64,000 nt of DNA from Acidobacteriota bacterium. Its GTDB lineage: Bacteria; Acidobacteriota; Thermoanaerobaculia; Multivoradales; Multivoraceae. The stretch covers positions 64,013 to 128,012 of the forward strand of contig JAJCXN010000028.1 of the NCBI GenBank assembly GCA_029263415.1, in the 5' to 3' direction. The stretch's first letter is position 1. Each line of letters begins with the position of its first letter. Positions 2,494 to 47,444 of the stretch are shown one piece after another. The translations under genes and the position numbers were made by a program. The notes under the pieces were generated by a model that was given only the letters and a program-made list of their open reading frames with translations, was not told the DNA's origin and ran no database searches.

Positions 2494-3219
2494 CTATGCC
2501 TGGTTCTCGCGATCAAGCATCTGGGTCTGCCAATAGTCCTCGAGGATCTCTCGAAGCCTTGCCTTGGCGCGGTTGATACGGGATTTCACCGTGCCCTCGC
2601 GGCAATCGAGCGCTTGGGCGATCTCGGAATAGGAAAGCCCTTCGATCTCACGCAGAACAATCGGTGCGCGATAACGCAACGGCAACTCAGCCAACGCCTG
2701 GGTCACCACATCCACCACCTCGCCCGAGATCGCTTCTCGATGAGGCGAGACAGGCGAACGCTCATCTTCGATTGCGAACAAGTTCGACAGCGTCCGCCAG
2801 CGCGACTTACGTCGCTCCTCAGATCTCACCAAATTGGTGGCGATACGGTAGAGATAGGCGGTGAAGAAGCCGCGATCTTGGTAGCGCGACGAGTTCTGAT
2901 AGAGCCGCAAGAACGCCTCTTGAGAGACCTCTTCGGCACGATCCCGACACCTAGTCAACCTGGACAGGTAGTTAACCAACGCGTTCTTGTGACGAGACAT
3001 GAGCAGCTCAAACGCCGCTTCATCGCCAGCTTGCACCAGCACCATCAGAGCACCGTCTTCCTGTTCGCAAAGCGGCACGCCAGCGGCGCCATCCGCACCT
3101 TCAGTGGGGTTGGGTCGGGCTTGAGGTGTCGCGTTGCTACCGGGTTTGCGCAGTCGAGGGCGCAGGGTGGCGAGATCGTGGTCGTTCATGGTGGTGCTAA
3201 TAGACGTCACGGTATTCAT
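2494..3219 (-). CDS. ECF RNA polymerase sigma factor (SigE/SigW-like)
   Basis: Region 2 (AGDEAAFELLM...DRAEEVSQEAFLRLY...FTAYLYRIATN) and region 4 (LPLRYRAPIVLREIEGLSYSEIAQALDCREGTVKSRINRAK). Start uncertain (3189, 3219 or 3270). Confidence 0.93.
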   Translation of the reverse strand: MNTVTSISTTMNDHDLATLRPRLRKPGSNATPQARPNPTEGADGAAGVPLCEQEDGALMVLVQAGDEAAFELLMSRHKNALVNYLSRLTRCRDRAEEVSQEAFLRLYQNSSRYQDRGFFTAYLYRIATNLVRSEERRKSRWRTLSNLFAIEDERSPVSPHREAISGEVVDVVTQALAELPLRYRAPIVLREIEGLSYSEIAQALDCREGTVKSRINRAKARLREILEDYWQTQMLDRENQA

Positions 3220-3303
3220 CCTGAATCGTTGCAGCTCTAACGCGAAAACCGCTAGGCCGAGATGGCCCAAACAGGGCTCTTCGCTCTCTCTTCCGCATAG
3301 CTA

Positions 3304-3330
3304 CAACGTCCAACCCGCACCGCAAGTTCC
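3304..3330 (-). promoter_or_regulatory. Putative autoregulatory ECF promoter GGAAC-N17-CGTTG
   Basis: Minus strand reads GGAAC ttgcggtgcgggttgga CGTTG, matching the SigH/SigE/SigR-type consensus GGAAC-N17-CGTT, just upstream of the ECF gene. Confidence 0.65.
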
Positions 3331-3432
3331 CGCCTCAGGGTATCGATCTGAGACCGCGCTTTCGGGCTACCCACGAGCCGGACCGATGAGGAAACATATC
3401 CCGACCCGCACCAAGTCTCCGGTTTCTGAGTA

Positions 3433-5049
3433 CTACCGACTGTAAGCCTTCGTATCGATCCCGAACTTCTTGACCTTGTAGCCGATAATCCGCGGCGTCG
3501 ACTGCAGCATATTCGCCGCCGATGACACATTGCCGCGGCAGGTCTTGAGCGCATCCCGAATTAGGTCACGTTCGAACGCATCGACCCGATACCGTAGCGA
3601 ATCGGTGGAATTCAAGCCAGTCGTCACCTCGGCGGTCTGCAAGGTCGGGGGTAAGTGGTAGGGATGGATGACATCGCCCTCTGCGACCAAGACCGCTCGC
3701 TCGATGCAATTTTCGAGTTCTCGAACGTTGCCCGGCCAGTGGTAGCTCATCAGCATGTCGATCGCGGCGCTCGAAAGCCGGCGCACCGGTCGCCGATTGG
3801 TGCGTGCATAGCGCTCGATGAAATGGTCGGCCAAGAGCACAACATCGCTCTTTCGCTTGCGCAGCGCCGGCACGTGGATTGGGAACACGCTGAGTCGATA
3901 GAACAGGTCCTCGCGAAAGCTGCGTTGCGCAGCCTCCGCCGCCAGGTCCTTGTTGGTCGCAGCGATCACTCGTACGTCAACCTGTACCGTCTTGGTCCCG
4001 CCCACCCGCTCAAACTCGCGTTCTTGCAAGACGCGCAACAGCTTGATCTGAATCGTCGCCGGAATGTCGCCGACCTCATCCAGGAAGAGGGTTCCGCCAC
4101 CGGCCAGTTCGAAGCGGCCCTTACGATCGGCAACCGCGCCAGTGAAGGCCCCTTTGACGTGGCCAAAAAGCTCGCTCTCGATCAAGGACTCGGGCAGCGC
4201 CGCGCAATGCACTTTGACGAACGGACCCGCGGCACGATCCGAATCGTAGTGCATGGCTTGCGCCACTAGCTCTTTGCCAGTGCCGGTCTCCCCCAAGATC
4301 AGGACGCTGGTATTGCTAGTCGAGACCATCGCGATCTGATCGTAGACCTCTTGCATCTCATGCGAGTTGCCAACAATGTTGGATGGTCTGAAACGGTCCT
4401 TAAGTTGCTCGCGAAGTCGCTCGTTCTCTTGTTCGAGCTTCTCCTTCTCCTCCTCCGCCGCACGACGAATCTTGACCGCCTGCGCCAGCATCGTGCAGAC
4501 AATCTGCAGCAAGCGAAGGTCCTCGTCCAGGTCAACGTCTTCGGTGTATGGCCGGTCGACCGACAGAGCGCCGTAGGTCTCGTTTCCGGCACGCACCGGA
4601 ACACAGATGAAAGAGAGCTCGACACCAACTCCATCCTTGCCGACCCCTAAGCGCTGAGTCCGATCGAGAAAGAGAGGCGATTCACTGAGTTTGGGCACCA
4701 CCGCGGGCTCACCGCTCTCGACCACGCGCCCAGTCACCCCTTCGCCCAGCCGAAACCGGCCCCGGCGTGCCATCTGATCGCTGACCCCGTGGGCTACCTC
4801 AATGAATATGTCGCCCGTTTGGCGGTTGAGCAGAGTCAGCGTGCCGTGCTCAAGACCCATGTGCTCGGCCAAAGCGTCGAGGACGGGCGGGAGCATCTCG
4901 CGCAGATCAAGGCTTCGCTCCAGCAAGTCGCTCAACCGGTAGAGCAACTTGAGTTCGCGCACCTCTCGACGATCTGGAACCGACTCCATCCCGCTGCGGG
5001 CAGAGTGGCCGGCAGCGAGACTTGCATCCGTGGAGCGGTTTCTCGACAT
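3433..5049 (-). CDS. NifA-like sigma54-dependent activator (GAF-AAA+-Fis HTH)
   Basis: N-terminal GAF, coiled coil, Walker A GETGTGKE, GAFTGA, FLDEVG, WPGNVRELEN and a C-terminal HTH (GNVSSAANML...IIGYKVKKFG). Confidence 0.93.
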   Translation of the reverse strand: MSRNRSTDASLAAGHSARSGMESVPDRREVRELKLLYRLSDLLERSLDLREMLPPVLDALAEHMGLEHGTLTLLNRQTGDIFIEVAHGVSDQMARRGRFRLGEGVTGRVVESGEPAVVPKLSESPLFLDRTQRLGVGKDGVGVELSFICVPVRAGNETYGALSVDRPYTEDVDLDEDLRLLQIVCTMLAQAVKIRRAAEEEKEKLEQENERLREQLKDRFRPSNIVGNSHEMQEVYDQIAMVSTSNTSVLILGETGTGKELVAQAMHYDSDRAAGPFVKVHCAALPESLIESELFGHVKGAFTGAVADRKGRFELAGGGTLFLDEVGDIPATIQIKLLRVLQEREFERVGGTKTVQVDVRVIAATNKDLAAEAAQRSFREDLFYRLSVFPIHVPALRKRKSDVVLLADHFIERYARTNRRPVRRLSSAAIDMLMSYHWPGNVRELENCIERAVLVAEGDVIHPYHLPPTLQTAEVTTGLNSTDSLRYRVDAFERDLIRDALKTCRGNVSSAANMLQSTPRIIGYKVKKFGIDTKAYSR

Positions 5050-8830: not shown

Positions 8831-11800
8831 CTAACGTGCTCGCCAGCGTTCGGCAAGATCAGCGACAGGTTCTATCAGTAACTGCTCTACGGACAACTCA
8901 AGCAAATGGTCTTCTCTGAAGGTGTCTTCGGTCTCCATGACTGCATCGCGCAGCTGCTCGTAGCGATTGCGGTAGCCCTGCAGAACGCCACGCAACACCG
9001 GCACGGTACAACGATCTTCGAGTTGGATGTGGATCAGCACTAACCCCTGCGTGCGGCCAGCCGCAACTTCGGGAACTAGAATGAACAGCCGACCGTCTGA
9101 ACTCCCGCGAGCGACCAACACCCGTCGGTCGAGCGCCACTCGCCGCTTGGTGCCGCGCAACACAGGCTTGTGCGCGGTGCGCGACTCAAAATCTCGCGCC
9201 ATACCAGAAGCGTCGAGCTTTCTGATCACGCACTTCTCGTCGGCGGGGTCGCCCTCGATGAGGTACCTGGTATGACCCAAGACCCGAAGCACAGCCGAAT
9301 CCAACGCCGCCAAGGTCTTCAGATCCGCGTACGAGACGCGATCGCGATCGCCACCGCTGTCGAGGACGGCCGCCACCAAGGGCACCGTCAGAAGCGCTTC
9401 GTCGCTACGCGAAATTCCAACCGTCACCGTCTTCGCTTGATGCTTGATGGCATCGACCGGCCTGGTGAGTTCGTCGATGCCTTGAGTCAGTGCACCGCTC
9501 AAGGCCTCGATCACCGAAGCTGGGCTTGCTGGGCCGCCGAAAATGGCCGCGTGTCCCTCCAGGGTGATCTGCCCCATCACGGTGCGCAACAAGAGACCAA
9601 CTTCAGTCGCAGTCGAGGCTTCGAGATGTCCGTTGTAGGACCCCTTCGCGAGCTCATCCAAGAAGAGTTGCATCTGTGCTGCGGACTGGGCCAGCAGTGA
9701 GGAGAAGAATTCGGCCTGCTCTCCTTGCTCGATCCAACGATGAGCGAGCTCTTCGATGCTCGAGCGCACCTGGCGCAACGGCGTGGCCTGGGCATCGATG
9801 GCAAGAGCGGCTGCGTAACCAAACAGGTGGCCCGCGAGCGAGGCCAGCACGAAATCAAGCGATGGGTGGACTCGGGGCACATTGATGACTGCTGAAGCAG
9901 CGTTGAATCGCTGTTCGCCTTCGCTTGCGATCACCACTGTGGTCGCCTTGTGAGCGCGGTAGATGGCAACTTCTTTGGCCACATCGTCAGCGGTGGAACC
10001 TTCAAGGCCCGCGGCACAAACAACGATCATCGGTTCAGACGACAGATCGATGTGCTTCTTGTCCTCGGTTGCATCACACGCGATCGACTTGTAGCAAAGC
10101 TCCGACAACTTGATCCGCACTTCTTCAGCAGCGATCCGGTTGAGGCCGTTCCCCACCAGAGCCCAGTACCGATGGGGCGTTACCAGGCGACCCGCGATGT
10201 TCGAAATCTCTCCACGGAGCCCGATCACACTCCGCAGAGCATCTGGAAGACGACGCAGGTTAGCGATCAAATCAGCGATCTTCCGGTGCGGTGTCGCCTC
10301 ACCTAACACGCGTTCGGTCAAACCAATGGTAAGCAACAACCCCGCTGCGATCTGGGAGTAGAAGGCCTTGGTGGAAGCGACACTCATCTCCACATCGCGA
10401 CCGTCAGAAGTGAACAAGACTCCGTCGGCCTTGTCGCAAAGATCACTGTTGCGCCGATTGACGATCGCCAGCACACCAGCCCCGCGGGACCGCACCAGGT
10501 CAACCGTCCGGTTGGTATCGGTGGTGGTACCCGATTGGCTGATGGCGATCACGAGAGTATCGCTCATCTCCGCTCGCATACCGAAGCCTGACAACTCGGT
10601 TGCCGGCAGAGCCCGCACCTCGCGGAGCCGGTCGCCTAGGAATCGCGCCATGACCTCCGCGATACCCCGACCGGCGACCGCAGCCGTGCCTTGACCGATG
10701 ACCAAAATGCGCTCGATGGCGCCACTCGTCAATCGTTCCTCGATCGATGCCGGGATGGTCGACTCCCCCAACACGACGCTGAGCGCGCCATCGTCGGTCT
10801 TGCGGAATCGGCCGCGCAGAGTCTTCTCGAACGACCGGGGCGCCTCCGAGATTTCCTTCAGCAGGTAGTGCGCATAGTCACCGCGATCGACGTCGCGAGT
10901 GGTGATCTCGGCGATCCGCACGTCGTCCTCAGTTATCGGCAACTCGGTTCCATCATAGGAGAGCAGAGCAAGGCCCTCGAGACTCCCAGCGAGCGCACCA
11001 TCAAGCGTCATCACCTGGCCGCGGGATCCGTTCGGGTTGTCTGGATTGCCCGGAGTCTCTCCATCAAGCCGCACATAGCGATCGCAGAGTTCGACCACGC
11101 CGTACAACTCGGACGCAACGATGAATGTGTCTTCTGCCAATCCCACGTACACCGCCTGGCCCGATCCATAGAGCGCGAGCATCATCTTTCCGGGCTCCTG
11201 CGCCGCCTGCAGGCCAATAGCAACCGAGCCCCTGAACGACGCGACCGTGTCGAGGAAGGCCTTTTCGAGACTACTGCCGGTAGCCAGGTGCTGAGACACC
11301 AATGCTGGGATCACCTTGGTGTCGGTGGTGATCTCGTCCGCGAAATCCAGACCCGCCTGCGACTTAAGGTCAGCGTAGTTGTCCACATCTCCGTTGTGGA
11401 CCGCGACCGCGTAGGGCTCGTCGCCGCACCCGGGGTTGATCCCTTCTTGGTTGAGCGGGTGCGCGTTCGGTTCGGTGATGAGGCCGACGCTCGCCCAACG
11501 AGTGTGACCCAGCACAGCCACTCCAAGAGCAGAGCTACGCAGGGCACGAGCCAGGAGTTCGTCGTTTTCAATGTCTGCTCTGAGCGCTCGAACGTTGTCG
11601 CCCAGCTCGCCGATTTCCTTGGCGACCTTGAACACCAAGCTGAGGACGATTGAATCAGACGGGCCGGCCACGAATCGGACCTCGCGATTCTCGAACAAAC
11701 GAGACGTGCGCTCATTGACCGTAGCCGCAATATCGGGCGCCTGTGGGTCGAGCCCGTGACCACTCAACAGCAAGTGCAATCCCGCCGAGTCGCGGCCTCT

Positions 11801-12352
11801 GACCTCCATGCGATCGAGCGACGAAAGACTCTGGTGAATCGAGAGCGCCGCAGTCACCGCCTCGAGGCTCATAGAACCACTTCGGGACAGCAAACGCCTG
11901 ACCCCTTCAACCGCTCCGAGCGCATCGCGCGCGACGCTCCAAAGATTGTCGCGCTGTTTCAGCAGGGCGGCATTCGCTCTCTCCACGTCCACACTACGCA
12001 AAGACTCTAACGAGCCGGCAGCGGTGCCTCGCCCGTCGAGAACCGCCTCAATTCGATCGCACAGTTCAGTGCAACGGCTGGTCCGGTCCTGCACCAGGGC
12101 GACCAGCGACGAGTCCGCCAGCAACGCCCGGATTCCAGCAGGCGTCCGCACTGCAGAGACCACAGGATCCAGCAGCGTAGATGTGGCGTCGAGACCGTCG
12201 ATCTCGGCTGTTCCCAGAGCGGCGGTCGAATCGACGCACGAGCACAGGACCTCCAGCACCGAATCGAAGGTCGCGCCGACTGTCGCGGCAAGCTCGGGCG
12301 CGTCACTCCTCGACGGATCGGGTCTGCGCAGAATGGCAATGATGCCGCACAT
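8831..12352 (-). CDS. Very long (1173 aa) GlmS-like glutamine:fructose-6-P amidotransferase
   Basis: N-terminal MCG, RGRDSAG, HTRWAS, HPLN, VHNG, TDT, SQSGTTTDT, VASTKAF, KLSELCY and AKTVTVG map onto GlmS motifs, with large insertions and a C-terminal extension. Confidence 0.85.
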   Translation of the reverse strand: MCGIIAILRRPDPSRSDAPELAATVGATFDSVLEVLCSCVDSTAALGTAEIDGLDATSTLLDPVVSAVRTPAGIRALLADSSLVALVQDRTSRCTELCDRIEAVLDGRGTAAGSLESLRSVDVERANAALLKQRDNLWSVARDALGAVEGVRRLLSRSGSMSLEAVTAALSIHQSLSSLDRMEVRGRDSAGLHLLLSGHGLDPQAPDIAATVNERTSRLFENREVRFVAGPSDSIVLSLVFKVAKEIGELGDNVRALRADIENDELLARALRSSALGVAVLGHTRWASVGLITEPNAHPLNQEGINPGCGDEPYAVAVHNGDVDNYADLKSQAGLDFADEITTDTKVIPALVSQHLATGSSLEKAFLDTVASFRGSVAIGLQAAQEPGKMMLALYGSGQAVYVGLAEDTFIVASELYGVVELCDRYVRLDGETPGNPDNPNGSRGQVMTLDGALAGSLEGLALLSYDGTELPITEDDVRIAEITTRDVDRGDYAHYLLKEISEAPRSFEKTLRGRFRKTDDGALSVVLGESTIPASIEERLTSGAIERILVIGQGTAAVAGRGIAEVMARFLGDRLREVRALPATELSGFGMRAEMSDTLVIAISQSGTTTDTNRTVDLVRSRGAGVLAIVNRRNSDLCDKADGVLFTSDGRDVEMSVASTKAFYSQIAAGLLLTIGLTERVLGEATPHRKIADLIANLRRLPDALRSVIGLRGEISNIAGRLVTPHRYWALVGNGLNRIAAEEVRIKLSELCYKSIACDATEDKKHIDLSSEPMIVVCAAGLEGSTADDVAKEVAIYRAHKATTVVIASEGEQRFNAASAVINVPRVHPSLDFVLASLAGHLFGYAAALAIDAQATPLRQVRSSIEELAHRWIEQGEQAEFFSSLLAQSAAQMQLFLDELAKGSYNGHLEASTATEVGLLLRTVMGQITLEGHAAIFGGPASPASVIEALSGALTQGIDELTRPVDAIKHQAKTVTVGISRSDEALLTVPLVAAVLDSGGDRDRVSYADLKTLAALDSAVLRVLGHTRYLIEGDPADEKCVIRKLDASGMARDFESRTAHKPVLRGTKRRVALDRRVLVARGSSDGRLFILVPEVAAGRTQGLVLIHIQLEDRCTVPVLRGVLQGYRNRYEQLRDAVMETEDTFREDHLLELSVEQLLIEPVADLAERWRAR

Positions 12353-19811: not shown

Positions 19812-21272
19812 TCACAACCGCGAGGGCGCAGGGCGCCCGGCGCCGAGTTCGGTCACCAGCTCCACCAGAGCGCTCTCAGCCGCGCCACTCTCGCCCTTGA
19901 GTGCCATTTCGGTCTCGAGCAATCGCGGCAAGAGACGAGCAAGGTCGGTGGATTGATGGCGTGAGGCCGCTAGGTACACCCGATGCAACCTGAACGGGTG
20001 CAGTTTGCCAACAGGGTTCAGTAGACCGCCCGCGAGATCGCGCTGAAGCGTCGGCGCCACCGAGTTCTTGAACTGGTTGTAGTTGCGCTGCCCCACCGGC
20101 GCACCGGTATCGCGCAGCAGGCCTTGAACCGCAACTAGTTGCCGCGCAAAGTCGGCCAACAGCGAGAACGTCGACAAACGAGCACCCATGGTGTCGTCGG
20201 CGGAGTCGAGTAAACGCCGCAGGCGCGACACGGCAGCCCCAACCTTCCCCTCGCCGACCTCGTCCAGCACTTTCCAGACATCCTCCTCGCCCCGGTCCTC
20301 GACCGAGCCACTGACAGCTATGCGGTCAATCGTGTCTCCGTCGACCATGGTTGCGAGCTTGCGATACTCGGCAGCGAATCGTCCCGTGGACTCCGCATCC
20401 ATCTGGCTTTGCTTGCCGCGTTGAGGCGACTTGCGGAGGGTTCGGCGAGCGAGTTCCTGCACTGCATCGGGGCGCATGGTCTTTCCTGTCGATCGCGCCA
20501 GCTCTGTAGCAAGTTCGCGTAGTCCATCGACCTGCCCCCGCCGATCGAACTCGACCGATCCGACAGCTGCGAAGGCCTTGGCCTGAACCAGAGCCTCCTT
20601 GATCGGATGTTCGTCAGCGACGCTGCTTTCCACCAACACCAACGAGTGTCCCTTGGGCAGTCCGTCGCGAATCAGCGCACTCAAGTCAGCCAGGTCGCCC
20701 TCCGCGTAGCCGAGCAGTTCGGCATCGCGTGCCTTCTCAAGGAGCATGACCAACCCCGCGCGCAAGTCGGCCGCCTGCTTCTTGCCCCGCGCACGGTTCT
20801 TTCGCTTCTTGCGAAACGCTGCTCCTCCAAAGTAGACCCAATCGGGCATCTTGGACAAAACCTGCTCTGGCGTACCCACATCCGGGGCCACACCGAACAA
20901 GCGCAGCGCCTGCAGCAGTCGACTCGCAGCTTCGGTTTCCTTCCCCGACAGCTCGCTGTCCTCGTCGACCTGCCCGACCTCAGCAGCCTGGTCGATCAGA
21001 TCGGCGGCCGCGGCCTTATCGGCCAAGAGTGCGGTCTCGATGACCAAAATCACCTTGGCCGGATCAAACAAGGAGAACGTGCGCAGGTCTTCTAGTACCC
21101 GTGCTAAGTGCGGAGGTCGCCTGCGAACCACAACTTGACAGCCCGCGCGTTGAGCGATTGCCTCTGCGACTCGTCGTCCCGCAGGCTCGCTCAGCACCAA
21201 GTCGCCAACCAGCAGCGATGCCGGGATTTCCTCCCCAGCCTCGATGCGAGCGAGAATGTCGTCTAAAGGCAT
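19812..21272 (-). CDS. holA: DNA polymerase III delta subunit-like protein, long form (486 aa)
   Basis: TFSLFDPAKVILV, EDVWKVLDEVGEG, LHPFRL..., LLETEMALKGESG..ESALVELV fit the HolA layout, plus a ~100-aa insertion. Confidence 0.7.
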   Translation of the reverse strand: MPLDDILARIEAGEEIPASLLVGDLVLSEPAGRRVAEAIAQRAGCQVVVRRRPPHLARVLEDLRTFSLFDPAKVILVIETALLADKAAAADLIDQAAEVGQVDEDSELSGKETEAASRLLQALRLFGVAPDVGTPEQVLSKMPDWVYFGGAAFRKKRKNRARGKKQAADLRAGLVMLLEKARDAELLGYAEGDLADLSALIRDGLPKGHSLVLVESSVADEHPIKEALVQAKAFAAVGSVEFDRRGQVDGLRELATELARSTGKTMRPDAVQELARRTLRKSPQRGKQSQMDAESTGRFAAEYRKLATMVDGDTIDRIAVSGSVEDRGEEDVWKVLDEVGEGKVGAAVSRLRRLLDSADDTMGARLSTFSLLADFARQLVAVQGLLRDTGAPVGQRNYNQFKNSVAPTLQRDLAGGLLNPVGKLHPFRLHRVYLAASRHQSTDLARLLPRLLETEMALKGESGAAESALVELVTELGAGRPAPSRL

Positions 21273-21338
21273 CTAGCCTCTCCGCGCCCGCGCGCGCAGT
21301 CGATCACAGCCCGCGGCAAAGCTCGCAGGCGGGTGGCA

Positions 21339-22421
21339 TCAGTCCAGCAAGCCCCGCTCTTGGAGTTCCTGACAATCAATGCAGTTCGCAGCCCAAGGAA
21401 CCGCCTCGAGCCGCAGCTCGCCAATGCCGGTCTTACAGTTGACACACTCGCCAAAGGTCCCGTCTTCGAGACGCGCCAGCGCACTGTCGATCTGCTCCAA
21501 AAGCGCACGCTCGCCGTCCGAGATGGCGAAGGTCAGTTCACGATTGTAGTTGGTGGTCGCTCGATCCACCATGTCCTCCATGCCATCACTGGAGGGGCGC
21601 AGCGAACTCGAAACATCACTCTCATAGCGCTCGACCGTTTCCTCACGCTTGGCCAAGAGGACCTGCGTGAAGGCACGCTTCTTCGCAGCCAAGATCTTAA
21701 CGCTCGGATCGTGCGGCGGTGGCGGAGCAGCCTTGATCAACTGTCGACGCTTCGGCCTTTTCTTGGGTGCCGCAGGCGTGGGGTTCTTCGCTGCCGTGGT
21801 TTTCTTGGCGGTCGTCTTGCGGGCTGTGGTCTTCTTGGACCCTGTCTTGCTCGCCGTCGTCTTCTTGGCCGTTGCCTTCTTCGCCGTTGCCTTCTTCGCG
21901 GTGCTCTTCTTAGCCGTCGTCCTCTTGGTGGCCTTGGTCGCAGCAGTCGGCTTCGCTGTGCTTTTCTTTACCGGCTTCTTAGCACCGACCTTCTTGAGCG
22001 TCGCGGTGGTTGAAGATCCCACCCTGACCTTGGCTGGCCGCGGCGCAGCGGGCTTCGCCGCCGCACGCTTCTTGACGGTTAGTGTTCTTGATGCCGTCTT
22101 CGTCTTGGTCGACTTCGCCTTGGATATAACCTTCTTCGCAGCCGACTTCTTGGCAGTGGTCTTGCGAGCCGTTACCTTCTTGCCGGCCGCTTTCTTGGCT
22201 GTTGTCTTCCGGGCTATGGTCTTCCGGGCTGTGGTCTTCTTAACCGCCGCTTTCTTCGCCGTTGGTTTACGCGCGGTAGTTTTTTTGGCAGTCGCCTTCT
22301 TGGCCGTGGTTTTCTTAGCCGTGGCCTTGCGCGCGGTCGTCTTCTTGGCGGTGGTCTTCCGGGCAGGCGATTTCTTCGCTGCGGACTTCTTCTTCATCGT
22401 CGTCGTCTTCTTCGTGGGCAA
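21339..22421 (-). CDS. dksA: DksA/TraR C4 zinc-finger protein fused to a histone H1-like Lys/Ala/Thr repeat domain
   Basis: C-terminal DMVDRA (DxxDxA), ALARLEDGTFGECVNC...PWAANCIDCQ; N-terminal ~240 aa of pentapeptide repeats. TTG start 22421, 8 nt after AGGAGG. Confidence 0.85.
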   Translation of the reverse strand: MPTKKTTTMKKKSAAKKSPARKTTAKKTTARKATAKKTTAKKATAKKTTARKPTAKKAAVKKTTARKTIARKTTAKKAAGKKVTARKTTAKKSAAKKVISKAKSTKTKTASRTLTVKKRAAAKPAAPRPAKVRVGSSTTATLKKVGAKKPVKKSTAKPTAATKATKRTTAKKSTAKKATAKKATAKKTTASKTGSKKTTARKTTAKKTTAAKNPTPAAPKKRPKRRQLIKAAPPPPHDPSVKILAAKKRAFTQVLLAKREETVERYESDVSSSLRPSSDGMEDMVDRATTNYNRELTFAISDGERALLEQIDSALARLEDGTFGECVNCKTGIGELRLEAVPWAANCIDCQELQERGLLD

Positions 22422-22668
22422 AGGCCGCACCTCCTACCGATCCGCAGTCTTACAACGTTCGGGTCATACGGTCTCGCGTGGAATTCGCCAGGCCGCGCAC
22501 TATCAAGGGTTCGTAGGGGAGCTGGTCGCTCCGAGCCACTGTGTTTCGTCGAGGCACCGGCTGCTTGAGAGCACAGCCAGCGCCTCATCTATTGTTCCGA
22601 GTGTGGAGTTCAGACCATTGGGCGTAGCCGGAATCTTGGTGTGGTCCGGTCTTTGCCTTGAGCCCCAC

Positions 22669-23142
22669 TCAAATTCGACCGCGATGGTACTTGATTCCAT
22701 GCTCGATCGCGAGAGCTCTGTACAGCTGTTCGTAGAGCATCAGTCGCGCCAACTCGTGAGGAAAGGTCATGGGCCCGAAAGCGAGGACCAGCTGGGCCTC
22801 GCGCCGAAGTGATTCAGCGAGTCCTACATCGGAGCCGAGCAGGAATGCGATCGGGTGCGGATACTCTTCTCGTTTGGCCTTCAACCACGACGAAAAGGCT
22901 TCCGAACTCATGGCCCGCCCCCGCGGATCGAGCGCTACGGTCAGACAGGATGGCGGCAGCGCAGCACGAATACTGTCCGCTTCGACCGCCAACCTTTGCT
23001 GCGGATCGTTGTCCTTGATCTTGATGACAAGTTCTCTGAGAGGAACGGTCCGCCGAATCCGCTCGGCATAACCCTCACACAGTCCGCGCCAAGGCTCGCG
23101 ATCATGCCGTCCCGCCCAAACAACCAAGAACTCCCTTGCCAA
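22669..23142 (-). CDS. rlmH: 23S rRNA (pseudouridine1915-N3)-methyltransferase
   Basis: ALDPRGRAMSSEAF, FLLGSDVG, AFGPMTFPHELARLMLYEQLYRA, KYHR. TTG start 23142 after GAGGAGG (157 aa). Confidence 0.93.
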   Translation of the reverse strand: MAREFLVVWAGRHDREPWRGLCEGYAERIRRTVPLRELVIKIKDNDPQQRLAVEADSIRAALPPSCLTVALDPRGRAMSSEAFSSWLKAKREEYPHPIAFLLGSDVGLAESLRREAQLVLAFGPMTFPHELARLMLYEQLYRALAIEHGIKYHRGRI

Positions 23143-23459
23143 CGGAATTGCCTCCTCTGGAGCGCCACTAGTGGACAGAATTCGGTGAAATCGGGCTTTG
23201 GGCAGGCAAGCCTTCAACAGCCACAAAGGTAAGCGAGCGGGGACCCTCGACTTCGTACATGTGAACCTGCCCCCACGTCGCGGCAGGCTAGCACCCCAAC
23301 GCAGACGCGAGGCACCACCGACCGTTGTGCTTCGGTTATCAAGCGTCACAACCCCAGTCACCCCACTCTTCTGCGCTGCGACCCCACCTCCCATCCCCCT
23401 CTACCTTCTCACTCAGCCCTCATTCCCCTTCACCTCCCCATTTCACCTTGCGACGTCCC

Positions 23460-23500
23460 ACGGGAGGCTTCGCACCGCCGAAGGCGCTTGGAGCAAGCAA
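23460..23500 (+). repeat. Partial copy of the intergenic repeat family
   Basis: ACGGGAGGCTTCGCACCGCCGAAGGCGCTTGGAG-CAAGCAA. The first 34 nt match 33855-33887 with 1 mismatch and 1 indel; TCCCACGGGTTG is missing. Confidence 0.7.
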
Positions 23501-23507
23501 TTGACTA

Positions 23508-23543
23508 CTGAACACCCAGTGATACCCATCACTGGGTGTTCAG
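23508..23543. repeat. Perfect 16-bp inverted repeat
   Basis: CTGAACACCCAGTGAT-accc-ATCACTGGGTGTTCAG. Confidence 0.9.
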
Positions 23544-23561
23544 CCGATACTCTTGCGTGCT

Positions 23562-24557
23562 ATGGCACGATCTGGGTCGGAACAACGAAAAGCATCTCGG
23601 CGACGACGATTGGGGCAAGGGATTGCACTCGGCACCCTCGCCTTGGGTGTTCCCGCGCTGGTCAATTCGATGATTGCCAAGCGCGCCGCACAATTGCCGC
23701 CGGGCTCACTACCTGCAGACGAGGACTGGCGCCCTGAGCGCTGGGCGTCCGCTGTTGGCGAGCTATTTGTGCTCACGCGGGGCCTGAGTCGTCCAGCCAC
23801 ACCGATTGTCTTTCTCCACTCTTTGGGGCCAGGCCACTCTCACCAACAGTGGCTCGCAGCAACTGAGTCGCTGGCGCTCAAGCATCCTCTGATCCTGGTC
23901 GACTTGCTTGGTTGGGGTCGTTCCGACCGACCGAAAGCCCCCTATGGACTGAAGGCCAGCGTCTCTACCCTCAAGAATCTTGGCTCCGAGTTCATCGGCA
24001 AGCCCTTTCATCTCGTTGCCAGTGGTGAGAGCGCGCCAGTAGCCCTCAGCCTCGCGGAGAGTGCGCCGGAAATGGTCAAGAGTGTCGCATTAAGCGGTCC
24101 GGCAGGACTAACGCTCGACAGTGCCGAACCGTCGCGCAGGGACTGGGCCTTCGACCAGCTCCTGGGTGCACCAATCTTCGGCACCTCGGCTGTCAATGCA
24201 TATACCCGCCGAAGCGCGATCGAGAACAACCTGATCCGGCACCAGCTTGCGCCTCCTAGCGCCGAACAGATCGACGAACACTACCGGCTAGCGCATTTAC
24301 CCGGAAGCACGAGCCCTGTGTCGACGTTCTTAAGAGGTCGCTACGAGCGAGCGCTCGGCACCCTCGCGCTAGATCCAAGCCTCAAGGTCTGGATCGCTTG
24401 GGGGCGGAAGGCGGTTGGCGAACCGGTCGAGGACGCAGACCTCTGGCTTCGCCACCTCAAGTCGGCTGAGTTGGTGGTTTTCGAGAACGCGGCCTCATGG
24501 CCTCACGTCGATCAACCCAAACAGTTCAGCGATGAACTGGTCCGCTTCATCGGTTAG
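23562..24557 (+). CDS. Membrane-anchored alpha/beta-hydrolase fold protein
   Basis: N-terminal TM (GIALGTLALGVPALV), VFLHSLG, VDLLGWGRSDRP, AWGRKA, SWPHVDQP; the nucleophile elbow is atypical (HLVASGESA). Confidence 0.8.
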   Translation: MARSGSEQRKASRRRRLGQGIALGTLALGVPALVNSMIAKRAAQLPPGSLPADEDWRPERWASAVGELFVLTRGLSRPATPIVFLHSLGPGHSHQQWLAATESLALKHPLILVDLLGWGRSDRPKAPYGLKASVSTLKNLGSEFIGKPFHLVASGESAPVALSLAESAPEMVKSVALSGPAGLTLDSAEPSRRDWAFDQLLGAPIFGTSAVNAYTRRSAIENNLIRHQLAPPSAEQIDEHYRLAHLPGSTSPVSTFLRGRYERALGTLALDPSLKVWIAWGRKAVGEPVEDADLWLRHLKSAELVVFENAASWPHVDQPKQFSDELVRFIG

Positions 24558-27023: not shown

Positions 27024-27926
27024 CTAGTAGATCTCGACCGAGCGCTCGCCGTAGAGGACTCTTGCACCGCCCGGCTGCTCACCGAACTGGTCAGGGAACT
27101 CAAGGGTGACCAAGACGGCGCTGGCGCCATCGGGCAGCTCGCCTGAGGCGATCTCGAACTCTGTCTCACCGTTGACGTGCTCCAGCAATTCGCCGCCCAT
27201 GACCGAACCATCTTCTCCCAAGAACCACAGCCGGTATCGACGACCCAACTCGCATTTGGCGAGGTTGTTGGTCGCAATCACCCACACGTGCTCGTCAGGA
27301 CGCAGGAAGACCGCACCCGTGGCCATCGGTTGATCTGCGGCCACCGCGCTCAGCGCACAGACACGGGTATTAGGCTTGGTGGCGACGCCAATTTGGTGGC
27401 GCAGCCGCCGGTTCTCGAACAGAACCTGCTGGAAATCGTTGGGACCGATGCCCACCTCAATCTGGTTCGCCCGTTCGTCGAGCTCGGATTCGAGCCCAGC
27501 GACCAGAGTCCGGCTCTGCTTGAGTTCAGACATCAAGAAACCACTCCAAGCACCAAGGCCAACGGCCAACAAGACTGCCGCGGCCAAGGCCAGCGGCACC
27601 AGGTTGCTCTGACGCACCGGGGTGGACTGGGGCTTAAGAAACGGCAGAACGGTCTCAGGGGTTGAGCCAACCCCTGAGGTTTGTCCCATCGGAAGATCGA
27701 GTCGATTGAAGAGCGCGACCTTCGCTGCCGCGCGAGTTGCCCTCGAGAATCCGATCATTGGTGTAGCTGCCTGAGCCATTAGCCCGAGGGCCTCTAGGTC
27801 GGCACGCTTCGCGCCGGGAGCTCCACCCTCGGTGAATGGGTCTGCGCCATCGAGGACGGCAAGCAGCGCCTCCTCTTCGGGGGTCGGCTTGTGCGGCTGG
27901 GATTCGGTGTCTTTGGTCATAGTCAC
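27024..27926 (-). CDS. RskA-like anti-sigma factor
   Basis: Downstream of an ECF sigma; central TM (LALAAAVLLAVGLGAW), coiled coil and C-terminal RRYRLWFL...AVLVTLE-type RskA domain. Confidence 0.75.
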   Translation of the reverse strand: MTMTKDTESQPHKPTPEEEALLAVLDGADPFTEGGAPGAKRADLEALGLMAQAATPMIGFSRATRAAAKVALFNRLDLPMGQTSGVGSTPETVLPFLKPQSTPVRQSNLVPLALAAAVLLAVGLGAWSGFLMSELKQSRTLVAGLESELDERANQIEVGIGPNDFQQVLFENRRLRHQIGVATKPNTRVCALSAVAADQPMATGAVFLRPDEHVWVIATNNLAKCELGRRYRLWFLGEDGSVMGGELLEHVNGETEFEIASGELPDGASAVLVTLEFPDQFGEQPGGARVLYGERSVEIY

Positions 27927-27938
27927 TCAGCGCGTGAG

Positions 27939-28529
27939 CTAAAGCAATTCATGGATCTCGTCGGCCAGGGCGGCACGCATCTTCTTCATAGCAAGCAACG
28001 TTCGCGTCTTCACCGTGCCCAGTGGGATGCCATGACTCTCGGAGATCTCGCTCTGAGTCATGCCTTCGAAAAAGGCTAGATGGAGAACCTCGCGTTGCTC
28101 TTTGGGCAGCGCCTGAAGCTCTGCTTGTAGGCGAGCACGCCGCTCATCTCCCAATACGTTCGGCTCGCCCGTGGGAGATGCATCAGTGACCGGGTTTTCT
28201 TCATGCGCGGCTTTCGCCGTACGATCCTTGACCGCTCTTGAACGCAACCGGTCGATCGAACGGCTGCGCACGATCAGCGACAACCAGGTCGACACCGAAG
28301 CCCGAGACGCGTCGTAGCGGCCGGCTTGGTTCCAAACCTGAACATAGACGTCTTGAACCACGTCCTCGGCTTCTTCGTGGTCCCCGAGGATACGACGACT
28401 CAAAGCCTGTAGTAGCCCTGAGAAACGATCATAGAGTTCACTCAACGCGGTCTCATCGCGCTGAGCGATCCGCTTGACGAGGTCGATGTCGTGGCGTGTT
28501 TGTTCGGGCTTCGCGGAGGTGCGGCTCAT
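27939..28529 (-). CDS. ECF sigma factor (SigK-like)
   Basis: DETALSELYDRF, EAEDVVQDVYVQVW..A.RYD, RSRSIDRLR, LPKEQREVLHLAFFEGMTQSEI...PLGTVKTR. Confidence 0.93.
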   Translation of the reverse strand: MSRTSAKPEQTRHDIDLVKRIAQRDETALSELYDRFSGLLQALSRRILGDHEEAEDVVQDVYVQVWNQAGRYDASRASVSTWLSLIVRSRSIDRLRSRAVKDRTAKAAHEENPVTDASPTGEPNVLGDERRARLQAELQALPKEQREVLHLAFFEGMTQSEISESHGIPLGTVKTRTLLAMKKMRAALADEIHELL

Positions 28530-36226: not shown

Positions 36227-38086
36227 TCAGCGGTCGACGCGGCCCTTGGTTAACTCGTTCAGGCGCTGCTCGAAATGCCCGCGCAATGGGTGATCCCCAC
36301 CGTTCATCCTCAACAGAACCGCGAGCGCCATCCGGGCCTCTTCCAATCTGCCCGCGTCTAGCAGCACGGTCAAGGTCGACACTCCCTCTGAAACACCATC
36401 ACGGCGTCGACTCTCTTGATCCGCAACTTCGATCTCGTTGAGCATGACAGTGATTTGCTCGTTCCCCGGGTTCACCGCCTGAAGCCGTGTCGCCAGCTCT
36501 CTCGCCTCGGGCAGGTTCTCAGCGGCAACCGCTTCCGGGTATAGGCGCAGGATCTCAGCGACCTCAGCGGAACCTCTCGCTTCCGCCATTGTGGACTCCA
36601 GCCGTCTTGAAAACAGATCGCGGGTAACCTTCGCCACTCCCAGCGACCCCAGTTTGTCGATCTCTTGAGCGGCCAGATCGAATTCAGACTGCTCAAGCAG
36701 CTCCTCGACCCGAACTGAGATTGCTTCCATCTCATCGGTCTGGGTGTCGTCATCGTCACTGACTTGCAACAGGCGCTCGAGTTCGCCCGCAGCTTCGAGA
36801 TCAAGCCCTAGTAACTGCCTTTGCAGCGCACGAGCGCTGACTCGATCACCGCTCGCAAGTTTCCTTCTTCCCTGCTTCAGCAGACCCTTGACGCGCTCCT
36901 CCTCTTCTTGAGCTAACTCAAGCGCAGCGATCCGAGCATCCAATGCATCTTTGTCGCGGTATTCCGGATCGATCTCCAGCAGCGAGTCCAAAGACAGCCG
37001 CGCAAGCGCCTTTTGCTTGGAGGCGATGTATTGCTCGACCATCTCTCGCACCTGCATCAGCTGAACCTGTCGCCGAGCTTTGGTCATCTCGTCCAGGCGA
37101 CTGCGTAGGATGGCCAGCCCCTCGATACCAGGATGGCGCGTTTCCAAATCATGGAGGTAGGTCTCGGCATCGGCGAACCGACTCTCGGCGAGGGCTCCAG
37201 AGGCGTCATCCAAGCGAGCTCGCCCCTCGTGCGCTCGCGCCGTTTCTTGTTGCGCGTCGATCTCCTGGCCAACGCTCAATAGCTCGCTGCGGAAATCCGA
37301 CGCGACCTGGAAGCGATCGCTACGCTCAAACGCAAGAGCTTTTTGCATCAGCTGATGGACCGACTCCAACGACAACGCGCGCGGGGGGGCAGTGCGGCGC
37401 AGTAGCACATCGGCCGCGCTCGTCGCCTTGGGAAAGGGCAACACACCGGTCAGCATGCGATACAGAACGATCGCGAAGGAGTACAGATCGGACGCGTGGT
37501 CCGGACGCACGCCCTCGATCAGGCCCAGGTGCTCGGGGCTGCAGTAGTTCATCTTCCCGCCGACCTGACCCGACCGCTCGCCCATCGGAGTGACCTGGTC
37601 TGCAAGACCCAGATCGATGATCTTGACGCCTAGCCGACCCCGCGGGTCGGAGGTGATCATCAGATTGTCCGGAGAAACATCACGATGCACAATGCCCTCT
37701 TCGTGAATCGCTTCCAGCCCAGAGAGCACCTGAATGGCCAATTCCAACGCAATCGGCAAGGGAAATCTCCCTCGGCGTTGAAGCCATCCCTCTACATCCT
37801 GGCCTTCGATGTGCTCCCACACCATGTAGAAGGATCCGTCAGGAAGTCGAGAAAAGTCGTGCAATGTTGCGACGTTGGGATGCTTGATCTTGGTTGCCAG
37901 CCGCGCCTCGTTGCTAAACCGATCGATCGCTTCGGTGGATCGAGCGAGGTCCGAGCGCATCACCTTGATGACGCGCTGCTCCTCGAGATGGACGTGGCGA
38001 ACCCGGTAAACCTCACCCATGCCGCCGCTGCCAATGCGGCCGATCACTTCGTACTTGCCGTCGATACGGCCACCAATCTCGGTCAT
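36227..38086 (-). CDS. Hanks-type Ser/Thr kinase with soluble TPR-like helical C-terminus
   Basis: IGSGGMGEVY, VIKVM, HRDVSPDN, KIIDLGLA, NYCSPE, SDLYSF. No TM evident. Start set at ATG 38086. Confidence 0.9.
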   Translation of the reverse strand: MTEIGGRIDGKYEVIGRIGSGGMGEVYRVRHVHLEEQRVIKVMRSDLARSTEAIDRFSNEARLATKIKHPNVATLHDFSRLPDGSFYMVWEHIEGQDVEGWLQRRGRFPLPIALELAIQVLSGLEAIHEEGIVHRDVSPDNLMITSDPRGRLGVKIIDLGLADQVTPMGERSGQVGGKMNYCSPEHLGLIEGVRPDHASDLYSFAIVLYRMLTGVLPFPKATSAADVLLRRTAPPRALSLESVHQLMQKALAFERSDRFQVASDFRSELLSVGQEIDAQQETARAHEGRARLDDASGALAESRFADAETYLHDLETRHPGIEGLAILRSRLDEMTKARRQVQLMQVREMVEQYIASKQKALARLSLDSLLEIDPEYRDKDALDARIAALELAQEEEERVKGLLKQGRRKLASGDRVSARALQRQLLGLDLEAAGELERLLQVSDDDDTQTDEMEAISVRVEELLEQSEFDLAAQEIDKLGSLGVAKVTRDLFSRRLESTMAEARGSAEVAEILRLYPEAVAAENLPEARELATRLQAVNPGNEQITVMLNEIEVADQESRRRDGVSEGVSTLTVLLDAGRLEEARMALAVLLRMNGGDHPLRGHFEQRLNELTKGRVDR

Positions 38087-38284
38087 ATGCGTTCCAATCG
38101 CGCTTTCTGGAATGTGCACGGCGGTGCCTGGCTGCTCGCAAGACGCCTCAGCACAGAAGCGGGCCAGTTTGACGGAGAATGAATCATGGAAGACAACGCT
38201 GTCATGAAAACTGGCCGATCGCGGACAAAGTCTTAACCGGTCGGGGCTCGGCAACGAGCCGGAAGCCCCCGACGCAGCCTACCT

Positions 38285-41244: not shown

Positions 41245-42216
41245 CTAAACCTGCTGAGCCACGAACGGGCTCGTTGTCCACTGACCCAACGAGCCGGGCT
41301 CGTTCCCGAGAACCACCGTCTTTTGAGTTTTCCGGCCGCTTGAAATGGGGGCCCTCGTTCCTCGGAGCCCTGTCCGCGCCACACCTCGTCTTGCATTGCC
41401 ATTGGTTTCGCCCTCAGCACCCAGGACAATCCGTCGCTCGAAGCGCAGATCCACAACCGAGAGCCGACCGAAGCGGTCGCGCAGTTGTGGCAGCAGGTCA
41501 TCGACCGTCGCGATCTGCCGCTCCAGCTCGGGGCCATCTCCACCACTGCGCATGCGGATGGAGAACTCGGCATCAAGAAACGTGAATTCGAGGTCTTCAG
41601 GACTCAAGATGCGCGCGTGGCTCGGCCGGCGTGCCCAAGCAATCGAGCTTTGAGAGAGCTCTCGAGCGACGCTAATGGCTCGCGCGAGCTGAGTCGGTGC
41701 CGCAGCGGCTGAAGGGTCGTCAATCACCAGGCCGGACGCCACAGGGTTCTCGTCTGACACGCCGATTGGAGTGATTCGCTCACCCAGTTCGCTCAGCAGG
41801 AAGCGACCCTCAGCAGTCTCATGTAGAGCCCGCGGGACGTGCTCATCTATGCTGACGATCAATCGCCTCGGCAACTCCTTCTTCAAACGCAAGGTGCTGA
41901 TCCACGGGTGCACGCTCAGCCGCCCGCGAATGGGCTCAAGGTCGGTGAGCAGGAGGCTCTCGCCCATCGCCGAAACCAGCTCGGCTTCCACCCACTTCCG
42001 GTCAACGCGCTCTGCGCCTCGCGTTTCGATCTCTGAGAGGACGAATTCCTTTGAACCCACAATCCAGCCCGCGACTGCAACGACTGGCACGATGACCAAC
42101 AAGATCCTGAGAGCGCGGCGGGCAGCGGCAACCACGGGGCGGGCTCTTCTGCGCTTGGCGGCGAAGGGCAGGCGGCGGAACGACAGAGTTCGCTTCTGCT
42201 CGTTGAGATAGCTCAT
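41245..42216 (-). CDS. ftsQ: Cell division protein FtsQ/DivIB
   Basis: Single TM, POTRA (SVHPWI...LPRRLIVSIDEH), VDLRFERRIV; lies between murC and ftsA. Confidence 0.85.
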   Translation of the reverse strand: MSYLNEQKRTLSFRRLPFAAKRRRARPVVAAARRALRILLVIVPVVAVAGWIVGSKEFVLSEIETRGAERVDRKWVEAELVSAMGESLLLTDLEPIRGRLSVHPWISTLRLKKELPRRLIVSIDEHVPRALHETAEGRFLLSELGERITPIGVSDENPVASGLVIDDPSAAAAPTQLARAISVARELSQSSIAWARRPSHARILSPEDLEFTFLDAEFSIRMRSGGDGPELERQIATVDDLLPQLRDRFGRLSVVDLRFERRIVLGAEGETNGNARRGVARTGLRGTRAPISSGRKTQKTVVLGNEPGSLGQWTTSPFVAQQV

Positions 42217-43601
42217 TCCGCGCCCTCGCGTGCGAGCTGGTCACCCAAGCGGACGATGTCTCCCGCACCGAGGGTCAGCACAACGTCGCCGGCGGCCACC
42301 GAGTCAGCCAAGACAGCAACCACCTCGCTCCAGTCCGACACCTGCCGGATACGGCGATGCCCCATGCTCTTCGCTGCGTCGACGATCAGTTGGGAAGTTA
42401 CGCCTTCGATCGGTGCCTCGCGGGAGCCGTAGATGTCGGTCACTAACGCCTGATCGGCCAACAGCAAGGCCCGGCCAAACTCTTCTGCCTGATCCGCCGT
42501 GCGCGAATAGAGATGTGGCTGAAAGACCGCGTGCACTGCGCCCGTGAACACCTCTTGCGCAGCCTTCAAAGTGGCCGCAACTTCGGTGGGATGATGGGCA
42601 TAGTCATCGATGACTTGTGCACCAGAGAAAGAGCCCAGGCGTTCGAAGCGCCGATGCACACCGCGAAAACTGGCAATGCCGTTCGCGATCGTGGCGAAAT
42701 CTTGATCTAGGGCCACCCCCACTGCGACGGCGGCGAGGGCGTTTTGAACGTTGTGGTCTCCAGGCAGGGGCAGCTCCAACTCACCGAGAACTCCACTCTT
42801 TGCGTGGCGTACTTGAAAGCGTGTGACCACACCATTGCGTTGGATGTTCTCAGCTGTGATTTCGGCGGCTGCGGCCAACCCATAGGTCACGATCCGACGA
42901 TCGTTGAGGCGCGGCAAGATCTCCTGCACCCTGGGGTCATCAAGACAGACAATCACCTGACCGAAGAACGGAACCCGCGACGCGAAGCCCACGAAGGCGT
43001 CCTGGATCTCTTCGATGTCGCGATAAGTGTCGAGATGGTCGCGATCGATGTTGGTGATGATGGCAACCACCGGTGCCAAGCGAAGGAAGCTCCGGTCGAA
43101 TTCGTCTGCCTCGGCTACCAAGAACTCACTCTTGCCGAATCGGGCGCCAGTGCCAGTCAGGCGTAGGCGGCCTCCAACGATGACCGTTGGGTCGAGCCCG
43201 GCGTCGGTGAGTAGGGTGCCTACCAACGAGGTCGTGGTGGTCTTGCCGTGCGTTCCAGCAACCGCGATGCCGTACTTGAGGCGCATCAACTCAGCGAGCA
43301 TCTCCGCACGGCGGACCACGGTGATGCCGGCCTCACGTGCAGCTGCCACCTCGACGTTGTCGGCGGGTACCGCCGACGAGATCACGACCAGATCCGCGCC
43401 CTCGACGTTCTCTGCTCGATGACCTTCGCAGAACCTGGCACCGAGCGACTCGAGTCGGCGAGTCGCCTCTCCAGCGCGCAGATCAGAACCGGAGATCTCG
43501 AAGTCCATGTCGAGCAGAATCTCGGCAATGCCGCTCATCCCAACCCCGCCGAGGCCAACAAAGTGGAGTCTCCTTAGACCCGAATGTCGATGGAACATCA
43601 T
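42213..43601 (-). CDS. murC: UDP-N-acetylmuramate--L-alanine ligase
   Basis: HFVGLGGVGMSG, AGTHGKTTT, VAEADE, GVHRRFE, DDYAHHPTE, FQPHLYSRT. ATG 43601 overlaps the murG stop. Confidence 0.97.
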   Translation of the reverse strand: MMFHRHSGLRRLHFVGLGGVGMSGIAEILLDMDFEISGSDLRAGEATRRLESLGARFCEGHRAENVEGADLVVISSAVPADNVEVAAAREAGITVVRRAEMLAELMRLKYGIAVAGTHGKTTTTSLVGTLLTDAGLDPTVIVGGRLRLTGTGARFGKSEFLVAEADEFDRSFLRLAPVVAIITNIDRDHLDTYRDIEEIQDAFVGFASRVPFFGQVIVCLDDPRVQEILPRLNDRRIVTYGLAAAAEITAENIQRNGVVTRFQVRHAKSGVLGELELPLPGDHNVQNALAAVAVGVALDQDFATIANGIASFRGVHRRFERLGSFSGAQVIDDYAHHPTEVAATLKAAQEVFTGAVHAVFQPHLYSRTADQAEEFGRALLLADQALVTDIYGSREAPIEGVTSQLIVDAAKSMGHRRIRQVSDWSEVVAVLADSVAAGDVVLTLGAGDIVRLGDQLAREGAE

Positions 43602-44758: not shown

Positions 44759-44780
44759 TTGGAGGTTGAGTGCAAAGCGA

Positions 44781-47442: not shown

Positions 47443-47444
47443 CG

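Follow-up and report, generated by a model that had tools for sequence, protein, structure and literature searches.

A gene on the minus strand of the window, by which we mean the whole 64-kb stretch of Acidobacteriota DNA analyzed here, encodes at 21339..22421 a DksA protein whose folded domain is preceded by a long, repetitive, and strongly basic tail. We propose that this protein is the lineage's syntenic DksA ortholog, that it has acquired a disordered, histone H1-like tail of ~236 residues, and that it would act as a nucleoid-tethered secondary-channel factor of RNA polymerase in the manner of DdbA from Streptomyces coelicolor, a reading to which we assign a probability of roughly 0.7. 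The protein consists of two modules: the core is an acidic DksA domain, and a polycationic, disordered tail extends from the N-terminal base of its coiled coil. A preliminary description of this DNA had already pictured an H1/Hc2-like repeat tail joined to an intact DksA domain within a single open reading frame (ORF), and the continuous frame, the Pfam matches, and the fold prediction all bear out that picture.

The tail is made of two arrays of pentapeptide units, arranged as had been described: where about 18 units, a spacer, about 9 more units, and a PPPP hinge were expected, we find 18 units, a 70-aa spacer, 9 units, and PPPP. Residues are numbered throughout, unless stated otherwise, from the first GTG of the mechanically called ORF (21339..22430, minus strand, 363 aa), and all features of the gene lie on that strand. 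By repeat analysis, array 1 (22122..22391; aa 14-103) contains 18 units of the form [KR]K[TASPV][TAPI][AVGS] in perfect register, beginning KKSAA, KKSPA, RKTTA, KKTTA, RKATA. It is followed by a basic spacer (21912..22121; aa 104-173, 70 aa) that is rich in K, R, A, T, P, and S, nonperiodic, and free of acidic residues; by array 2 (21777..21911; aa 174-218), two of whose 9 units are degenerate; and by a basic linker (PAAPKKRPKRRQLIKAA) and hinge (21714..21776; aa 219-239), the PPPP itself occupying aa 236-239 (21714-21725). The ~236 residues of the tail include 69 K and 16 R (85 in total, 36%) and no D or E at all, for a computed pI of 12.0 and a net charge of about +83, and the positions of K and R show a lag-5 autocorrelation of 0.63 versus -0.01 +/- 0.06 in shuffled sequences. 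The tail is predicted to be disordered: AlphaFold2 places no secondary structure over aa 1-240, and block-mean pLDDT is 39-59 over aa 1-230 and 65 in aa 231-240, which adjoin the core.

We also examined the repeats at the DNA level. Tandem Repeats Finder detects arrays of period 15 and period 60 with only 66-74% matches, together with a short three-copy sub-array at 89%. Among the 27 units, the fraction that differs from the consensus falls from 0.44 at codon position 3 to 0.22 at position 1 and 0.13 at position 2 (one-sided Mann-Whitney p = 0.018), and the same KKTTA unit is spelt with differing codons. Given that variation falls mainly at the third codon position and that the codons of KKTTA differ, our results support the view, put forward in the preliminary description on the strength of synonymous variation, that the repeats are old, with constraint acting on the encoded protein, and are not the outcome of recent slippage. 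The locus is present in two biofilm-metagenome runs (0.99 and 0.97 of sampled words), and contigs from two independent runs, X1 and X2, show 0 differences and 0 gaps over 20900-22900 and 20900-22604. These two contigs, along with a longest exact DNA repeat of only 17 nt, rule out an assembly artefact or a collapsed or expanded repeat. In runs X3 and X4 of the same biofilm study, short contigs are 90-95% similar to pieces of 21800-22380 and then pass into unlike sequence; these most likely belong to further lysine-rich repeat genes in the community rather than to length variants of the present one.

The core spans aa 249-359 and is acidic (pI 4.6, charge about -9). We defined the DksA/TraR family by Pfam PF01258 and PF21157; the coiled-coil domain (DksA_N, aa 252-321; 21468..21677) scores 32.1 bits (cut-off 27), and the C4 zinc-finger domain (zf-dskA_traR, aa 324-359; 21354..21461) scores 35.8 bits (cut-off 24.9). 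With phmmer, the core matches Escherichia coli DksA (1tjl) at E = 3.8e-12, with C114/C117/C135/C138 aligned; the finger motif itself, CVNC-x17-CIDC, lies at 21372-21446 (aa 329-353). The DxxDxA tip, DMVDRA (21558-21575), provides D286, D289, and A291, which align with D71, D74, and A76 of the E. coli protein, so that both the tip and the C4 finger of the preliminary description stand. Among 46 homologs, the D, D, and A of the tip are invariant and the zinc cysteines are invariant or nearly so. An AlphaFold2 model built from a 46-sequence alignment shows helices at 245-274 and 284-320 plus a zinc ribbon (pLDDT 78-98), and the top Foldseek matches in the PDB all belong to the DksA family, namely DksA2 (4ijj), 1tjl, the RNA polymerase-bound chains 7khi_M and 5vsw_M, and a chlamydial DksA. 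The scores for 4ijj, 7khi_M, 1tjl, and 5vsw_M are high (probability 1.0, target TM 0.65-0.74, rmsd 2.2-3.3 Å). As judged from these matches and the predicted model, the core is a complete acidic DksA domain with the DksA fold.

The surroundings of the gene indicate to which DksA it corresponds. On the minus strand, its upstream neighbor is rlmH, a SPOUT methyltransferase gene (22669..23139; identified by Pfam and conserved gene order), and its downstream neighbor is a holA-like gene for DNA polymerase III delta (19812..21272), which has a weak Pfam match and 47-54% identical homologs in relatives. In 76 of 80 related Acidobacteriota/Thermoanaerobaculia loci, and also in locus L081, rlmH adjoins the dksA ortholog; a holA homolog lies downstream of dksA in 50 of the 80, and the conserved order is rlmH-dksA-holA(-fpg-udk). 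In database searches, the core finds its best matches at 57-60% identity, and those that are named all come from Acidobacteriota/Thermoanaerobaculia metagenome-assembled genomes. The closest relative, P0195, is 60% identical over the core and carries 221 aa of basic tail, and it shares with the window a wider order of Zn-peptidase, PGM/PMM, hydrolase, rlmH, and dksA. Since both the gene order and the nearest homologs are common to Acidobacteriota relatives, comparative evidence identifies this gene as the lineage's conserved, syntenic chromosomal dksA and not as a mobile or accessory copy. Within the 64-kb window, we found neither a second DksA/TraR zinc finger nor any further K-rich low-complexity ORF.

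The one protein of this exact architecture that has been tested is DdbA (SCO2075), the "Dks-like DNA-binding protein" of S. coelicolor (Aldridge et al. 2013, PMC3643593). DdbA combines a 93-aa histone-H1-like N-domain, which contains five [S/T][A/T]AKK pentapeptides, with a DksA-like C-domain that has two aspartates and a C4 finger. DNA was shifted and condensed in vitro by the full-length protein and by the N-domain, but not by the C-domain; a ddbA mutant is altered in nucleoid condensation, in supercoiling after osmotic stress, and in sigR induction; and overexpression of full-length DdbA suppresses a relA phenotype (PMC3643593). The window protein likewise joins an H1-like N-domain to a DksA domain, its unit is the same ([ST][AT]AKK, which here reads TTAKK), and in both cases tail length varies among orthologs. 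Because DdbA shares the design and the unit, and because its N-domain binds and condenses DNA, we favor nucleoid tethering for the window protein as well, an idea that the preliminary description had raised with no mention of DdbA.

We infer the mechanism from DdbA and from the E. coli DksA structures (5vsw, 7khi). The acidic core would insert its coiled coil into the secondary channel of RNA polymerase, and the tail, leaving from the base of the coiled coil, would stay outside the channel and bind DNA nonspecifically through its charge. The factor would thereby be concentrated on the nucleoid, with an added nucleoid-associated compacting activity, and the tail could possibly contact DNA near the polymerase.

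The two proteins also differ in several ways. The window tail has ~236 aa and 27 units, versus 93 aa and five units in DdbA; the window protein comes from an Acidobacteriota lineage, whereas DdbA is actinomycetotal; and the window gene sits at its lineage's conserved rlmH-dksA-holA locus, whereas DdbA coexists with two tail-less paralogs. Nor does the window gene appear to be an ortholog of SCO2075, as its core is 35-43% identical to tailed proteins of Streptomyces and other actinomycetes versus 45-60% identical to Acidobacteriota DksA proteins, tail-less ones included. Given that the core is closer to Acidobacteriota DksA than to Streptomyces-type cores, the tailed groups of Acidobacteriota and Streptomyces probably represent independent acquisitions.

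Several observations weigh against our reading. The protein falls short of the DksA equivalog model TIGR02420 (78.6 bits versus a cut-off of 115.5), as it does of a second equivalog model, NF033459 (57.3 bits versus 105). In E. coli DksA, ppGpp site 2 is contacted by R91, K98, R129, and K139, plus L95 (PMC7676912); in the alignment to 1tjl, the four basic residues are replaced (R91G, K98Q, R129V, and K139Q) and L95 alone is kept. The clade consensus, RLEAVPWARHC..CQELQ, has V where E. coli DksA has R129 and Q where it has K139, so these two replacements hold clade-wide. Since the site-2 contacts are not conserved, regulation may differ from the E. coli model, and the replacement of the contacting basic residues makes an E. 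coli-type site-2 synergy with ppGpp doubtful. The tail does pass the Pfam HC2 cut-off (63.6 bits versus 40), and it scores below the cut-offs of the NCBIfam Hc2 models NF038052 (44.5 bits versus 135) and NF038053 (43.2 bits versus 80). From its sequence, the HC2 match is low-complexity and compositional; it implies no common ancestry and is no proof of DNA binding. A search for RNA runs that contain the locus returned none. Two further points on this side of the balance, the binding of similar K/A/P tails to polyphosphate (polyP) granules (AlgP, PMC9239181) and the lability of the tail, each bear on a different explanation.

In the first of these, the tail's main ligand would be polyP or RNA, and under starvation it would bring DksA, along with the RNA polymerase bound to it, to ribonucleoprotein condensates or polyP granules, much as AlgP is brought to polyP granules through its KPAA tail. 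In Pseudomonas, AlgP and PhaF carry KPAA-repeat, H1-like C-terminal domains that bind DNA, and that of AlgP also associates with polyP granules (PMC9239181, PMC11894788). AlgP, whose H1-like disordered tail is of similar composition to the one described here, localizes to the granules and needs the tail to space them (PMC9239181; review PMC11894788). E. coli DksA is cited in both of these papers as linked to polyP accumulation (Gray 2019), and a disordered tail with a charge of +83 would be expected to bind any polyanion. However, the AlgP and PhaF tails bind DNA too (PMC9239181), so polyP binding would be compatible with DNA binding; DdbA binds and condenses DNA; and nothing in the gene neighborhood points to polyP metabolism. 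We therefore regard polyP or RNA as an unlikely main ligand, albeit one that deserves consideration.

The comparison with AlgP and PhaF is instructive in other respects. Like them, the window protein bears a long, disordered, K/A-rich tandem-repeat domain of variable repeat number on an unrelated folded domain. Unlike the window's Thr-rich, N-terminal pentapeptide, their unit is a Pro-rich tetrapeptide, KPAA, at the C terminus, and the domain carrying these repeats is not a factor of RNA polymerase. A second parallel is CarD of Anaeromyxobacter dehalogenans, in which an RNA-polymerase-interacting N-domain is followed by an H1-like C-terminal domain that is functionally interchangeable with an HMGA domain (PMC2919716). 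CarD resembles the window protein in that an RNA-polymerase-binding transcription factor is joined to a basic, H1-like DNA-binding domain, although its module is a CarD_TRCF RID that binds the beta subunit and not a secondary-channel factor, and the order of the domains is reversed. The tail also resembles chlamydial Hc2 (PF07382) and the HupB/HupS tails in its lysine- and alanine-rich, pentapeptide-type repeats, although Hc2 is a stand-alone nucleoid-condensing protein. With respect to E. coli DksA itself (1tjl; RNA polymerase complexes 5vsw and 7khi), the window protein shares the coiled coil, DxxDxA tip, C4 finger, L95, and fold, whereas it lacks the four basic site-2 residues, stays below the TIGR02420 cut-off, and has the polycationic tail in place of an N-terminal globular segment.

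Tails of this kind are common among DksA relatives. When the core alone was used as the query, 120 proteins had a core match, with a basic N-terminal tail of at least 40 aa in 48-49 of them, at least 100 aa in 3, and at least 200 or 240 aa in none; the longest tail was 112 aa. Among cluster representatives at 50% identity (148 with a core match), tails reached at least 40 aa in 60, at least 100 aa in 31, at least 200 aa in 4, and at least 240 aa in none (longest, 222). The full-length search gave 113 proteins with a core match, of which 89, 85, 16, and 5 had tails of at least 40, 100, 200, and 240 aa, respectively (longest, 284). In a hand count based on precomputed Pfam annotation, PF01258 and PF07382 were both present in ~75 of the 120 full-length matches listed, and many of these bear names as TraR/DksA regulators from Streptomyces, Nocardioidaceae, Kribbella, Kytococcus, and Flexivirga. 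These searches support the conclusion that the architecture is widespread in Acidobacteriota and Actinomycetota and not unique, as the preliminary description had suspected and as DdbA itself attests. Since DdbA is a precedent, most of the novelty is removed: the architecture is already known, and the window protein is an unusually long example from a phylum in which it is unstudied. We found no literature on tailed DksA in Acidobacteria.

The survey of tail length among orthologs suggested in the preliminary description yielded a range of 0 to about 270 aa at the orthologous locus, with the composition kept and the sequence not. The ~236-aa tail of the window protein is near the top of this range, yet inside it. 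For three related loci, we read by hand the long in-frame tails, which automatic calls had shortened in part. That of L001 has ~128 aa and that of L047 has 180 aa; L002 (about 3164-4381) has ~270 aa of in-frame SKKAV-type pentapeptides, with a TTG start only and no ATG before the DksA tip. Repeats differ as well. They are 5-periodic in the window's subclade, whereas a Thermoanaerobaculia group has Pro-rich tails, of which P0021 was measured as 4-periodic (PAKA/AKAP; lag-4 autocorrelation, 0.72) and P0023, P0033, and P0041 have similar four-residue PAKA/AKAP units by eye. This pattern suggests that repeats expanded separately on this one gene. Given lengths from 0 to ~270 aa, periods of 5 versus 4, and tail-less orthologs at a similar core distance, the comparison of these sequences indicates that tails are gained, lost, and remodeled quickly as their basic, acid-free composition is kept.

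This lability raises the possibility that the tail is a low-complexity expansion that evolves fast, is tolerated, and has no specific function of its own, serving passively as a spacer or solubility tag. The tail is indeed very labile in both length and sequence: lengths among syntenic orthologs extend down to 0, tail sequence is not conserved even in P0195 at 60% core identity, and the repeat period differs by subclade (5 residues versus 4 in PAKA-type tails). The existence of tail-less orthologs (P0004, L004, and L008) at similar core identity further implies that the tail is dispensable for the function of the core. However, composition is tightly held, with zero acidic residues in ~236 aa and 36% K/R; the repeats vary chiefly at the third position of their codons; DksA proteins of distant phyla bear tails of the same kind; and the DdbA mutant has nucleoid and supercoiling phenotypes. 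We consider a functionless tail quite improbable.

The starting point of translation matters for all of these explanations. The most credible start is a TTG at 22421, since in the sequence read directly a Shine-Dalgarno-like AGGAGG (22430..22435) lies 8 nt upstream of it; this start coincides with the end coordinate given in the preliminary description, the resulting protein has 360 aa and a mass of ~38.5 kDa, and the complete coding sequence, supported by the ORF list, the start-codon map, and Pfam and NCBIfam matches, runs over 21339..22421 with its stop codon at 21339-21341. The first GTG forms the last part of an AGGAGGTG motif. An ATG at 22397 is an alternative start with no Shine-Dalgarno motif before it, and either start, TTG or ATG, leaves the entire repeat region in the protein, from which the frame continues unbroken into the core. 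An exact-sequence look-up in public assemblies returned no record of the ATG-start form. It is very improbable that the repeat region goes untranslated, with a TTG or GTG inside the ORF, close to the hinge, yielding a canonical DksA of ~115-130 aa and the upstream frame a by-product of repetitive DNA, because, even though such DNA keeps several frames open (including a 387-aa antisense shadow ORF), TTG codons do occur at aa 231, 247, and 259, and gene callers picked an internal start in at least one relative (P0001 versus locus L001), the only strong Shine-Dalgarno motif precedes the tail, reading upstream of the internal TTG and GTG codons revealed none, the start-codon map shows no ATG in this frame between aa 12 and aa 284, many orthologs whose DNA sequence is unrelated have in-frame basic tails as well, and the codon-position pattern fits the frame of the tail.

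We rejected the antisense ORF (21649..22812, plus strand; 387 aa) as a real gene, as the sense frame runs into the conserved DksA core. Its FLAVV-type repeats mirror the K/A/T codons, and it continues through the intergenic region into rlmH; GC3 gives no discrimination between the two frames (0.75 against 0.72). An automatic gene caller could mistake this shadow ORF for a membrane protein. A promoter scan of 21000-23600 found no sigma-70-like promoter, the sole match in an Rfam scan was a tRNA-Met, and "terminator-like" plus-strand matches inside the repeats were discarded as side effects of the repeat sequence. In the relative P0001 (167 aa; locus L001, about 3590-4384), the protein was called from an internal GTG and the basic open frame continues ~80 aa upstream, which serves as an annotation warning: gene callers cut such tails at internal starts.

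A bolder elaboration of nucleoid tethering can be imagined, in which the tailed form is the lineage's only DksA, the tail together with DNA or polyP drives co-condensation of RNA polymerase into nucleoid-associated transcription hubs, Hanks-type kinases tune the process by phosphorylating ~50 Thr residues, and the core is auto-inhibited until the tail engages a polyanion. We regard this as a long shot whose sole ground is composition; condensate formation and Thr phosphorylation, both raised in the preliminary description, are speculation. Thr makes up 21% of the window tail versus 1-12% of the tails of relatives, so that Thr richness is specific to the window ortholog, and the TTAKK unit has no Pro, unlike the S/TPKK sites at which kinases act on H1. 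A 675-aa Hanks-type Ser/Thr protein kinase is encoded 14 kb away (36227-38254, minus strand; Pkinase, 145 bits), which shows only that the genome has such kinases and establishes no link to dksA. Because Thr richness is peculiar to this ortholog and the kinase gene has no linkage, the phosphorylation idea is unsupported.

What the window gene offers is an extension of the DdbA-type design from Streptomyces to uncultured Acidobacteriota, where it is found on the lineage's conserved, syntenic dksA; it opens no new category of system. Tails of 0 to ~270 residues with differing repeat periods form a natural series in which tail length and charge could be related to the coupling between nucleoid structure and transcription initiation.

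One tailed relative, P0286 (375 aa, with a ~250-aa tail of KKSTA units), departs from this design in that the four zinc cysteines are lost (GVCQATG...YTIEAAR), as in Pseudomonas DksA2; P0304, P0350, and P0355 have similar lengths and tails. HC2-type, lysine-rich repeats that closely resemble the window tail are also found in P0295, P0299, P0319, P0341, and P0368, on NYN (PF11977) plus S1 RNA-binding proteins (529-561 aa) and on an adenylate kinase (452 aa). Judging from these domain combinations, the HC2-type tail behaves as a promiscuous module.

The window as a whole is core chromosome. The rlmH ORF (22669-23394, minus strand) has 241 aa, of which the SPOUT domain covers aa 91-237 only, and the L081 ortholog has 174 aa; the first ~70-85 codons of the ORF are probably not translated, and with this later start the intergenic region upstream of rlmH would be longer than the ORF list suggests. 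Also on the minus strand are an ECF sigma factor (196 aa) followed by an RskA-type anti-sigma factor (300 aa) at 27024-28529; at least three cell-wall synthesis genes within 41245-53489, namely a PBP transpeptidase (51633-53489) and two Mur ligases (50008-51636 and 45868-47532); and a full-length mfd (TRCF) at 57819-61313. Finally, a 1173-aa ORF at 8831-12352 (minus strand), whose sole Pfam matches are GATase_6 (aa 279-415) and SIS (aa 548-675), resembles GlmS at about twice the usual length, with ~280 N-terminal and ~500 C-terminal residues that match no Pfam family.

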